In this document: piece by piece, positions 1-39,704 of the stretch
Numbering within the stretch: the stretch's first letter is position 1
Layout of the letters: every line of letters begins with the position of its first letter
Sequence record: ON528724
Source: Shigella phage ESh12
Direction: 5' to 3' (one strand)
Length of the DNA stretch: 39,704 nt
The notes under the pieces: generated by a model
What the model was told of the DNA's origin: nothing
Database searches by the model: none
The model's input: the letters and a program-made list of their open reading frames with translations, nothing else
Program-made: the position numbers and the translations under genes

Positions 1-436
1 CGACCACATATCAATCGTCGTGTCTGCCTCTGAGGAATCGGATGAGCGTAAGATGATTGACCGCCTCATGACTAAGCTAAAAGGGTTCGCTAAGTCAACT
101 GGTGTTGTGCTCGTAGTGATTTGCCACTTGAAGAACCCGGAGAAGGGAAAAGCACATGAAGAAGGACGCGCTGTTTCTATTACTGACCTACGTGGTTCTG
201 GTGCCCTGCGTCAGCTTTCTGATACTATCATCGCCTTGGAGCGTAACCAGCAAGGTGATATGCCTCATTTGGTGCTTGTTCGTTTACTCAAGTGTCGTTT
301 CACTGGCGATACTGGAATTGCTGGGTACATGGAGTACAACAGAGAAACAGGATGGCTTGAACCATCTAGCTATACTGGCGAAGAAGGAGAAGGAGATACT
401 GGCTGGACTGAACAAGACGGACAGTCAGACTTCTAA
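1..436 (+). CDS. 4: Primase/helicase gp4, C-terminal part (continues from 38440..39704 across the window ends)
   Basis: Frame beginning at position 2 continues the open frame at the window end; helicase C-terminus [29 protein letters not shown]...[18 protein letters not shown] matches T7 gp4 from memory. Confidence 0.9.
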
Positions 437-488
437 GTACCAGTGCCACTGCGGTCATCCAGACTGTGATGGCGGAATGTACCACTAA
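156..488 (+). CDS. Overlapping small ORF at 3 prime end of gene 4 (gene 4.2-like position)
   Basis: ATG at 156 with purine-rich upstream, 110 codons in alternate frame; T7 has an overlapping gene 4.2 at the analogous place; hydrophobic N-terminus. Confidence 0.3.
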
Positions 489-509
489 TTAACCCTCACT
501 AACGGGAAC
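487..509 (+). promoter_or_regulatory. T3-type phage RNAP promoter (variant AATTAACCCTCACTAACGGGAAC)
   Basis: 23-nt match to T3 promoter consensus with 2-3 substitutions in initiation region. Confidence 0.7.
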
Positions 510-535
510 AACCATTAAACCATAGGAGACACACC

Positions 536-748
536 ATGTTTAAATTCATTAACGCTTTAGGTAAGCTGGTAGTTAAACTGTACTTCATCGAAGCCAAGAA
601 GCTGGACAAGAAGGCCAAAGCTGATTCACAGCGAGCCATTGAGTTGGCGAAACAGTCCCGCGAGAAATCCGATGCGGCTGTTAGTGGCATCCACAAGTCG
701 GCAGCGATTGCAGCCAAAGCACAGTCCATGAGCAAATTCTTTGAGTAA
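536..748 (+). CDS. 4.3: gp4.3-like small protein
   Basis: 70 aa, MFKFINALGKLVVKLY...SKFFE resembles T7 gp4.3 ends; RBS AGGAGA upstream. Confidence 0.7.
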   Translation: MFKFINALGKLVVKLYFIEAKKLDKKAKADSQRAIELAKQSREKSDAAVSGIHKSAAIAAKAQSMSKFFE

Positions 749-760
749 GGAGCGAACACT

Positions 761-1045
761 ATGAGCAAGTCAATCACCCACGCAAACACCATCCGTCTGC
801 CAGACACCGCCGACCAGTTCTCCCGCCGAGTACACATCAATGTGCGTGGCGAGAAGGTCACGATGGTCTACCGCTGGAAAGACCACAAGTCTCCGAAAGC
901 ACACACTCAACGAATGACCTTGGATGACAAGCAGGTCGGTCGCTTGATGGGTGCCCTGACTATGGCTGCTGACAAGGTGGTCGGTGACAACCGTGAGCGT
1001 CTGGTAGAGTTCGGCGCTGGTATGCAAGAGATTATCGAGAAGTGA
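761..1045 (+). CDS. 4.5: gp4.5-like protein
   Basis: 94-aa ORF with RBS AAGGAG, syntenic position between 4.3 and gene 5. Confidence 0.55.
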   Translation: MSKSITHANTIRLPDTADQFSRRVHINVRGEKVTMVYRWKDHKSPKAHTQRMTLDDKQVGRLMGALTMAADKVVGDNRERLVEFGAGMQEIIEK

Positions 1046-1090
1046 TAAACTCAAGGTCGCCCAAGGGTGGCCTTTATGATTATCATTTAG
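1046..1090 (+). promoter_or_regulatory. RNase III-type processing hairpin (R4.7 position)
   Basis: Motif AAACTCAAGGTCGC...GGCCTTTATGATTATCA recurring at 9 sites in the window; matches T7 RNase III site family. Confidence 0.55.
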
Positions 1091-1112
1091 CACGAAACCA
1101 AAGGAGGGCATT

Positions 1113-36913: not shown

Positions 36914-37390
36914 ATGGAACTTAGAGAGAAACTAAAGGCTTACAGCGAAGTTTCTCATAACGGGTGCTGGGAGTGGCAACGCTACCGGATGCCCTGTGGT
37001 TACGGTAGGATTAGACACGGAGGCCGAATGGAACTAACGCATCGTCTATCCTACCTAGCATTCAACGGGGATATACCTGATGGTCTTGTTGTTCGACATA
37101 AGTGTGACAACAAATGCTGCGTTAACCCTGAGCACCTTACGCTGGGTACTCAAAAGGACAACGTTAAGGATGCAATAGACCGTGGTCAATTCGTCTACAG
37201 GGAGAACCCGAAAGGTGCAAAGCACCACATGGCTAAACTTAATGAGAAACAGGTTATGGAGGTTTACAACTCGACACAGACCCAAAGCAGCCTAGCAGAG
37301 ACCTATGGTGTATCTCGACAATTAATCAGCGCGATTAAGAGAGGTAAACTATGGCAGCACGTTACGCAGCACGCGGAGTTAAACGAGTAG
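36914..37390 (+). CDS. HNH endonuclease (paralog of 33532..33948)
   Basis: 158 aa; HKCDNKCCVNPEHLTLGTQKDN HNH core; ATG immediately after gp2.5 stop; 3 prime end overlaps gene 3 by 40 nt. Confidence 0.8.
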   Translation: MELREKLKAYSEVSHNGCWEWQRYRMPCGYGRIRHGGRMELTHRLSYLAFNGDIPDGLVVRHKCDNKCCVNPEHLTLGTQKDNVKDAIDRGQFVYRENPKGAKHHMAKLNEKQVMEVYNSTQTQSSLAETYGVSRQLISAIKRGKLWQHVTQHAELNE

Positions 37391-37806
37391 GATCATATAG
37401 AAGCGGCTTAGAGCAGAAGAACATGGAGATGCTGGAACGCAAGGGAATCAAGGGACAGTATGAAATGTGGTCTATTCCATATGTTATCCCTGCATCGACC
37501 CACAAGTACACACCAGACATAATCCTACCCAATGGAATCATTATTGAGACCAAGGGTCTATGGGATAGTGAAGACCGTAAGAAACACTTACTGATTCGTG
37601 AGCAGATGCCTGAGTTGGATATTCGTTTGGTATTCTCTTCGAGCCGCTCTAAGTTATACAAAGGGTCTCCAACCAGTTACGGTGAGTGGGCCGAAAAGCA
37701 TGGTATTCTATTTGCTGACAAGCTGATTCCTGTGGAGTGGCTTAAAGAACCTAAGAAGGAGATACCGTGGGATAAACTAATTGCAAAGAAAGGAGTTAAG
37801 AAATAA
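37351..37806 (+). CDS. 3: Endonuclease I gp3 (Holliday-junction resolvase)
   Basis: 151 aa; PYVIPAS, YTPDIILPNGIIIETKGLW, KKHLLIREQ, VFSSSRSKLYKGSPTSYGEW match T7 gp3. Confidence 0.92.
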   Translation: MAARYAARGVKRVGSYRSGLEQKNMEMLERKGIKGQYEMWSIPYVIPASTHKYTPDIILPNGIIIETKGLWDSEDRKKHLLIREQMPELDIRLVFSSSRSKLYKGSPTSYGEWAEKHGILFADKLIPVEWLKEPKKEIPWDKLIAKKGVKK

Positions 37807-38261
37807 TGGCTAAGGTACAATTCAAAACGCGCGCTTCTACGGAAGCAATCTTTGTTCACTGTAGTGCAACCAAGCCAAGCCAGAACATTGGCGTTCGTGA
37901 GATTCGTCAGTGGCACAAAGAGCAGGGCTGGTTAGACGTAGGATATCACTTCATCATCAAGCGTGATGGCACTGTGGAAGCAGGCCGCGATGAACTGGCT
38001 GTAGGTTCCCACGTGAAAGGTTACAACCACAACTCCGTAGGCGTATGCCTCGTGGGTGGGATTGATGATAAAGGCAAGTTCGACGCCAACTTTACACCTG
38101 CGCAAATGCAAGCGCTGCGTAGTCTGCTGGTCACGCTGCTGGCGAAGTATGAGGGTTCAATCCTTCGCGCTCACCATGACGTTGCACCCAAAGCCTGCCC
38201 GTCCTTCGACTTGAAGCGCTGGTGGGAGAAGAACGAACTGGTTACATCTGACCGAGGGTGA
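37806..38261 (+). CDS. 3.5: Lysozyme gp3.5 (N-acetylmuramoyl-L-alanine amidase, RNAP inhibitor)
   Basis: 151 aa, same length as T7 lysozyme; zinc ligands and strong similarity. Confidence 0.95.
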   Translation: MAKVQFKTRASTEAIFVHCSATKPSQNIGVREIRQWHKEQGWLDVGYHFIIKRDGTVEAGRDELAVGSHVKGYNHNSVGVCLVGGIDDKGKFDANFTPAQMQALRSLLVTLLAKYEGSILRAHHDVAPKACPSFDLKRWWEKNELVTSDRG

Positions 38262-38265
38262 TACC

Positions 38266-38373
38266 ATGAGGATGATTTGTATTCGCTGTGATAAGCCGTT
38301 GAAGAGTCGTGTACCGTCACGTCAGTGTCAGTGCAAAGACCCAATCAAGGCGGAGGAACACACCGAGGAATAA
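38266..38373 (+). CDS. gp3.7-like small Cys-rich protein (35 aa)
   Basis: MRMICIRCDKPLKSRVPSRQCQCKD...; below ORF-track cutoff; zinc-ribbon-like CxxC...CxC. Confidence 0.4.
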   Translation: MRMICIRCDKPLKSRVPSRQCQCKDPIKAEEHTEE

Positions 38374-38394
38374 TTAACACTCACTAAAGGGAGA
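38372..38394 (+). promoter_or_regulatory. T3-type phage RNAP promoter (phi4)
   Basis: AATTAACACTCACTAAAGGGAGA followed by leader hairpin. Confidence 0.8.
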
Positions 38395-38439
38395 CTTAAC
38401 GGTTTCCCTTTGTTCTCGCAACTGATTAAGGAATGTACA

Positions 38440-39704
38440 ATGGAACGAGAAGACGATAGTATCTTTCTGTTTCATGCTCCATGTGAAAACTGTGGGTCTT
38501 CTGATGGTAACTCTGTGTACTCTGACGGGCATGAATGGTGCTTCGTGTGTGAACATCGAGTACCCGCAAACAAAGAGCGTGAAGCAAAGTTATCAACGAG
38601 AAGACGTACAGGAGGCAGTAAGCCTATGAGCTATGACGTATGGAATTTCGGCGACAGCAACGGTCGATACTCTGACCTGACTGCCCGTGGCATCTCGAAG
38701 GAGACATGCCAAAAGGCTGGCTACTGGCTGGCGAAAGTGGACAACCGAATGTATCAGGTTGCCGACTACCGAGACCAGAACGGCTCCATCGTGTCACAGA
38801 AGGTGCGCGATAAGGACAAGAACTTTAAGACCACCGGAAGCCACAAGAGCGATGCGTTGTTCTTGAAGCACCTCTGGTCTGGCGGTAAGAAAATTGTGGT
38901 CACTGAGGGTGAAATTGATGCGCTCACTGTGATGGAACTCCAAGACTGTAAGTACCCGGTCGTATCATTGGGTCACGGTGCCTCTGCTGCTAAGAAGACA
39001 TGCGCCGCTAACTATGAATACTTTGACCAGTTCGAGCAGATTATCTTGATGTTCGATATGGATGACGCAGGCCGTAAGGCAGTCGAAGAGGCTGCACAGG
39101 TTCTCCCGGCTGGTAAGGTTCGTGTTGCCGTGTTGCCATGTAAGGACGCCAACGAGTGTCACATCATGGGCGAAGACAAAGCAATCTTGGAGCAGATCTG
39201 GAACGCGAACCCTTGGGTGCCTGATGGTGTTGTCTCTGCGTTGTCACTCAAAGACCGCGTTAAGGAAGCTATGACCTCCGAGGACGCTGTAGGTCTGCTG
39301 TTCGATGGCTGTCAAGGCCTGAACGATAGAACCTTGGGTGCTCGTGGTGGCGAAGTCGTTATGGTCACTTCCGGTTCCGGTATGGGTAAGTCAACGTTCG
39401 TTCGTCAACAGGCTCTGGCTTGGGGCAAGCGAATGGGTAAACGTGTTGGCCTAGCGATGCTGGAGGAATCCGTTGAGGATACCATTCAGGACATGATGGG
39501 CTTGAACAATAAGGTTCGTCTGCGTCAGTCTGATGAAGTCAAGAAGGCTATCGCAGAGGACGGACGTTTCGATGAATGGTATGATGAACTATTTGGAGAC
39601 GATACGTTCCACCTTTATGACTCCTTTGCGGAGGCCGAAGCTGACAGGCTGTTAGCGAAGCTGGCCTACATGCGAACAGGCTTAGGGTGTGATGTTATAG
39701 TGCT
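38440..39704 (+). CDS. 4: Primase/helicase gp4, N-terminal part (open at window end, continues at 1..436)
   Basis: ATG 38440; Cys4 zinc-ribbon CENCGSSDG...CFVCE, TOPRIM region, Walker A GSGMGKST; internal 4B start at 38626. Confidence 0.95.

Follow-up and report, generated by a model that had tools for sequence, protein, structure and literature searches.

The window analysed here, the whole of the 39,704-nt record ON528724 from Shigella phage ESh12, is best read as a unit-length genome of a T3-like phage (genus Teetrevirus, Studiervirinae), 39,704 bp long and non-redundant, that was opened arbitrarily within codon 422 of gene 4, the gene for the primase/helicase; we put the probability of this reading at roughly 95%. 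It is carried by the closure of gene 4 across the record ends, by an internal concatemer junction and by colinearity with a unit-length relative. The two parts of gene 4 and the elements that belong to it lie as follows.

38374..38394, + strand: phage-RNA-polymerase promoter upstream of gene 4, the phi3.8 equivalent, with 1 mismatch to the T3-type consensus and positioned as in phiYeO3-12
38440..39704, + strand: 5' part of gene 4 (primase/helicase), comprising codons 1-421 and the first two nucleotides of codon 422; it encodes the Zn ribbon, T7 primase N-terminal fold and Toprim, and the DnaB-like helicase domain begins in it
38626..38628, + strand: start of gene 4B (helicase-only), an in-frame ATG at Met63, with AGGAGG (Shine-Dalgarno) at 38610..38615; annotated likewise in T7 and phiYeO3-12
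1..436, + strand: gene 4, 3' part, from the third base of codon 422 (Leu) through TAA 434..436

Consistent with a preliminary description of the sequence, which held that gene 4 is split in frame over the window ends, 38440..39704 joined to 1..436 forms a single open frame. From the ATG at 38440 to the window end there are 1265 nt, or 421 codons and 2 nt (CT), and codon 422 is completed as CTC (Leu) by the C that is base 1 of the window. The joined gene measures 1701 nt and encodes 566 aa plus a stop, the TAA at 434..436 being its sole stop and terminal. The same description gave a primase/helicase of about 567 aa; the protein is as it proposed, and the exact count is 566, with 567 including the stop codon. 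It also suggested concatenating the two parts, translating them and aligning the product to T7 gp4, and when this was done the frame ran unbroken, with no residue duplicated or lost. T7 gp4 (PDB 6n7i and eight further entries) aligned over residues 4-558 with no gap near the join, where the window reads VIVL before and DHIS after the join, against VIILDHIS in T7 gp4; the first full codon of the window is Asp, aligned with T7 Asp424 in the helicase motif DHIS. When phiYeO3-12 gp4A was searched by tblastn against the circularised window, its residues 1-566 were recovered in one high-scoring segment pair (HSP) of length 566 at 95.6% identity, and the 566 aa found here equal the length of gp4 in both T7 and phiYeO3-12.

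At the DNA level, a 2-kb query that joined the final 1000 bases of the window to its first 1000 was found in one piece in 98 phage records. The match to Serratia phage 2050H2 (MF285620 / NC_047844; Teetrevirus) covered 2000/2000 nt at 99.9% identity with zero indels, and because 2000 nt are matched to 2000 nt, no base is missing or duplicated at the join. The exact 40-mer over the join is also internal in two IMG/VR contigs. No k-mer of 8 nt or longer, the usual mark of an untrimmed circular contig, is shared between the window ends. Five independent tests agree, confirming that the closure of gene 4 is real and not a coincidence.

The joined protein has the makeup of a T7 gp4-type bifunctional primase/helicase, with Zn ribbon, primase fold, Toprim and DnaB-like helicase in one chain and an internal 4B start. 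Pfam profiles PF21268, PF13155, PF01751 and PF03796 (primase N-terminal fold, Toprim, DnaB_C) score above their cut-offs; PF08273 (Zn ribbon), at 20.0 bits, falls under its 23-bit cut-off, and the CxxC…CxxC motif nonetheless aligns to T7. The alignment to PDB 1q57, the 4B form, begins at residue 63 of the joined gp4. Compared with T7 gp4 (PDB 6n7i, 1q57, 1nui, 1e0j), the full-length alignment is ungapped save near the linker and the C-terminal tail, the Pfam domain set is the same and the internal 4B start is conserved; the two proteins differ in being about 85-90% identical, a figure estimated by eye from the alignment and not computed, and in the acidic C-terminal tail, which is of other sequence.

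The second line of evidence is the concatemer junction that the preliminary description had placed inside the window with one copy of the terminal repeat, and that we located between gene 19.5 and gene 0.3. Its elements are listed in order.

22498..22764, + strand: gene 18, terminase small subunit (Pfam DNA_Packaging_2; 98.9% to phiYeO3-12 gp18)
23281..25044, + strand: gene 19, large subunit of a T7-type terminase, cutting concatemers at the repeat (Pfam Terminase-T7_RNaseH-like; 99.5% to phiYeO3-12 gp19)
25127..25147, + strand: phiOR, the last phage promoter before the right end, an exact consensus match placed as in phiYeO3-12 and T3
25288..25437, + strand: gene 19.5, the last gene before the repeat (98% to phiYeO3-12 gp19.5)
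25520..25620, + strand: CCTAAAG short-repeat array left of the terminal repeat
25660..25890, + strand: direct terminal repeat, 231 bp, in a single copy that marks the concatemer junction; starts TCTCACAGTT and ends TATGTGTCCCT
25905..25962, + strand: CCTAAAG short-repeat array right of the terminal repeat, with 13-nt spacing
26056..26076, + strand: phiOL, the first phage promoter after the left end, placed as in phiYeO3-12 and T3
26130..26397, + strand: three strong sigma-70-type early promoters (at 26130, 26259 and 26369), the A1/A2/A3 equivalents, each with 10/12 consensus matches; equivalents are annotated in phiYeO3-12
26685..27143, + strand: gene 0.3 (S-adenosylmethionine hydrolase), the first gene of the canonical map (96% to phiYeO3-12 gp0.3)

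This succession of gene 19, phiOR, gene 19.5, CCTAAAG array, repeat, CCTAAAG array, phiOL, A1-A3 and gene 0.3 is the canonical T3-group concatemer junction. Searched against the window, the annotated 232-bp 'redundant repeat' of phiYeO3-12 (AJ251805) gave one match, at 25660..25890 with 93.6% identity, and BLAST returned only this hit, with no second or partial copy of the repeat in the window. In a multiple alignment with the repeats of T3 (NC_003298; 231 bp), phiYeO3-12 and T7 (160 bp), all share the first bases TCTCAC/TAGT and the last bases TGTGTCCCT. The unique sequence abutting the repeat is likewise conserved with T3, phiYeO3-12 and T7 on the left, where it ends in AAAAATCTGAATGGGTA, and on the right, where it begins with ATCTGTTAGCC, T7 reading ATCTGTTA. 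Because both boundaries and the abutting unique sequences are conserved with these three phages, we take the repeat to be 231 bp long and to end at 25890; the preliminary description had placed it at about 25660..25895, correctly as to the start and 5 nt too far at the end. The window thus holds, in one copy, a direct terminal repeat running from TCTCA to TGTGTCCCT with its CCTAAAG arrays, phiOR and phiOL.

Several further observations concern the junction. The heptamer CCTAAAG is concentrated around it, with 13 of the 21 window sites lying within 25520..26091 and a chance expectation of 3.8 for the whole window. A leftward A0-like sigma-70 match lies within the terminal repeat, and a scan for inverted repeats around the junction returned short, imperfect pairs only. 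Within the repeat, at 25696..25703, is a C8 homopolymer whose length in relatives is 6 in phiYeO3-12, 6 in 2050H2 and 8 in T3, and which is likely a site of sequencing or assembly length error.

The rest of the window is that of a whole T3-group genome, as the preliminary description had also supposed in calling it a complete genome opened inside gene 4 and not a fragment. Fifty phiYeO3-12 coding sequences were tested, and after rotation to 25660 the window has 47 of them in canonical order, from 0.3 to 19.5, with the non-mobile genes occurring once each. The other three are mobile genes: 1.45 and 5.3 gave only weak matches, to another HNH gene, and 13.5 matched an Endonuclease VII (EndoVII) homologue of 40% identity at another site. 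The rotated window is colinear end to end with the 2050H2 record, base 1 corresponding to record base 1 and base 39704 to record base 39216, and the join lies inside a single 25,251-bp HSP; relative to its relatives, the ends of the window join without a missing or duplicated base. The genome also has its own single-subunit phage RNA polymerase with promoters on one strand: gp1 (29981..32632) shares 99.2% identity with the RNA polymerase of phiYeO3-12, and all 14 T3-type promoter matches are on the + strand, where 0 would be expected by chance. A tRNA scan of the window found no tRNA genes.

Phages of the T3/T7 group have linear virion DNA whose ends are unique and carry a direct terminal repeat. 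Replication in the T7 group yields head-to-tail concatemers with one repeat copy per junction, and in the established model the gp18/gp19 terminase makes the ends while the repeat is duplicated. We propose that the record came about from such molecules. The virion DNA of this phage would be linear with a direct terminal repeat of about 231 bp at its ends; reads that derive from the two end repeats, which are identical, or else from the junctions of concatemers, would overlap; and an assembler would merge the ends into a circle, keep one repeat copy and cut the circle anywhere. The result would be an internal concatemer junction (19.5, repeat, phiOL, 0.3) and a split gene at the cut point. Circular assembly and arbitrary opening of phages with direct terminal repeats, T7-like phages included, is a known artefact (PMC10438801, HYPPA workflow), and the gene 19–repeat–gene 0.3 junction is internal in at least 41 related public records. 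The present case is the same in kind and differs in that the opening falls inside an essential gene, where it is visible from the sequence alone. We infer that the opening point is a software artefact. By homology to phages with experimentally determined ends, the virion ends would lie at 25660 (left) and 25890 (right), and the packaged DNA is predicted to measure 39,704 + 231 = 39,935 bp, which is within the range of the group (T7, 39,937; phiYeO3-12, 39,600; T3, 38,208).

A possible, if doubtful, variant of this history is that the sequence was sampled from intracellular concatemers or from a metagenome, so that the single-repeat junction is a real molecule and only the cut point is arbitrary. 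One repeat per junction, as in the textbook T7-group model, is exactly the arrangement at 25127..26397, and sequence cannot separate this origin from a collapse of the end repeats. Such sampling would alter the provenance of the record only; a complete, arbitrarily opened unit stands either way.

Far less probable is true circular permutation, in which headful packaging leaves no fixed ends and any linear form is equally valid. A self-closing, unit-length sequence is also what the assembly of a headful phage is expected to give. The large terminase subunit, however, is of T7 type and 99.5% identical to that of phiYeO3-12; the records of T3, phiYeO3-12 and T7 each have identical copies of a direct repeat at their two ends, which the T3 and phiYeO3-12 annotations call a redundant terminal repeat; and conservation here takes in the 231-bp repeat with its two boundaries and two flanks, together with phiOR, phiOL and the CCTAAAG arrays around the repeat. 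With a T7-type terminase and conserved terminal sequences, the genome was rejected as a member of the headful, circularly permuted class, and the phrase 'permuted form' in the preliminary description holds for the layout of the record and not as biological circular permutation. That the window might be a fragment or a mis-join, its in-frame closure coincidental and sequence lost or doubled at its ends, is scarcely credible and was refuted by the colinearity tests, since only the prior that windows are often fragments speaks for it, and against it stand the zero indels over 2000 nt to 2050H2, a gp4 of 566 aa as in T7 and phiYeO3-12, the exact join 40-mer inside two IMG/VR contigs, non-mobile genes present once each and ends without overlap.

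Two points weigh against the reading of the window as a collapsed and arbitrarily opened unit genome. The exact termini, the length of the repeat (including the C8 tract) and the second copy in the virion would rest on homology, and the opening point may come from the assembler, from the depositor or from the trimming of a longer concatemeric contig. More remote is the possibility that the true termini or the repeat length differ from those given by homology.

Queried with both halves of the window, the phage collection held no identical record, and the best match was 2050H2. An exact look-up of gp15 had no hit. The two are colinear from first base to last after rotation, with 95.1% of the window aligned at a mean identity of 96.4% (identity × coverage about 91.7%) and about 97.4% identity in a 25-kb block that extends from gene 3 to gene 18.5 and contains the join. 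The 2050H2 record is likewise a one-repeat unit genome: it starts with TCTCACAGTT, the equivalent of 25660, and ends in GAATGGGTA, the equivalent of 25659, stopping one base before a second copy would begin. It differs in being opened at the canonical left end, where the window is opened in gene 4, and in its early region, and four parts of the window do not align to it (27517..27963, 28304..28787, 33527..33943 and 37188..37458). Under the practice of the International Committee on Taxonomy of Viruses, the species threshold is usually 95%; the value of about 91.7%, a rough estimate, would put the phage below it. The RefSeq version of 2050H2 (NC_047844.1) lists no terminase large subunit; tblastn with the window gp19 found it intact at 36836..38596 (587/587 aa, 98.1%), and its absence is an annotation gap in the public record.

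The phages phiYeO3-12 and T3 share the gene order of the window, have repeats (232 bp and 231 bp, respectively) that begin and end on the same bases between the same flanks, and carry phiOR, phiOL and A0-A3 in the same places. They differ in having been deposited with both repeat copies and canonical ends. For phiYeO3-12, identity × coverage is about 84%, and its genes 1.45, 5.3 and 13.5 are absent from the corresponding sites here. With Klebsiella phage vB8388, the query found no match before window position 25660, and the match from there on reaches one end of the vB8388 record; like 2050H2, it is a related record that ends exactly at the repeat boundary. The early region of the window is closer to Shigella and Klebsiella phages and the late genes are like those of 2050H2; compared with its nearest relatives, the window has a mosaic early region, which is ordinary for the T3 group.

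Local differences from the relatives include three endonuclease-like genes. Between 0.6 and 0.7 is an Endonuclease VII-family gene (28242..28742, + strand; Pfam PF02945, E = 4.7e-24). Its homologue in phiYeO3-12, gene 13.5, lies between 13 and 14, and that in 2050H2 between 18.5 and 19, giving three insertion sites. Identity between the window protein and phiYeO3-12 gp13.5 is only 40%, and the aligned 2050H2 protein looks divergent as well, which suggests independent acquisitions or a mobile endonuclease. Two HNH_3 homing-endonuclease-like genes are also on the + strand, at 33463..33948 (between 1.2 and 1.3) and at 36914..37390 (between 2.5 and 3); the HNH genes 1.45 and 5.3 of phiYeO3-12 are without counterparts at the corresponding places in the window, and 33527..33943 is without a match in 2050H2.

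Other features vary gene by gene. In the early region, the open reading frame (ORF) at 27215..27499 (+ strand, 94 aa) had no Pfam match, and 27517..27963 (+ strand), a stretch with no 2050H2 match, yet encodes in its 3' part a gp0.45 homologue that is 95% identical to that of phiYeO3-12. Gene product 5.5 (3247..3546, + strand) is clearly assigned by Pfam to the T7 gene 5.5 family (PF11247, E = 9e-64) and shares only 44.6% identity with its phiYeO3-12 counterpart; its neighbours 5.7 and 5.9 match those of phiYeO3-12 at 100%, making gp5.5 a sharp local exchange. Gene 10A stops at 9726..9728, and the −1 frame stays open for about 38 further codons (region 9690..9850, + strand) that could form a gene 10B extension. 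The slippery CCCAAAG of phiYeO3-12 reads CCGCAAAG in the window, so that any 10A/10B frameshift here is putative. Downstream of gene 10A, a hairpin resembling Tphi, with a run of T, lies at about 9845..9885. For the tail fibre, the mechanical ORF spans 20219..22279 (+ strand), its ATG at 20219 lying within the end of gene 16 and the phi17 promoter region (20242..20262). Because homology to phiYeO3-12 gp17 begins at 20318, this is probably the real start of the tail fibre, which would then measure 653 aa. The tail fibre protein shares only 77% identity with gp17 of phiYeO3-12; it has a C-terminal Peptidase_S74 chaperone domain.

It is an even call whether the phage is a previously undeposited Teetrevirus mosaic with EndoVII-family and HNH genes at sites unlike those of its relatives; if it is, the pattern of endonuclease sites would mark recent endonuclease mobility within the T3 group.

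In conclusion, both the assembly artefact described here and the packaging and replication logic of the T7 group are already known, and the layout of the record adds no new biology. Its value is practical. As deposited, the record would lead a gene caller to report two truncated fragments of gene 4; it is nevertheless complete, and correct annotation calls for starting it at 25660 and adding a second copy of the 231-bp repeat, which would bring it to 39,935 bp.

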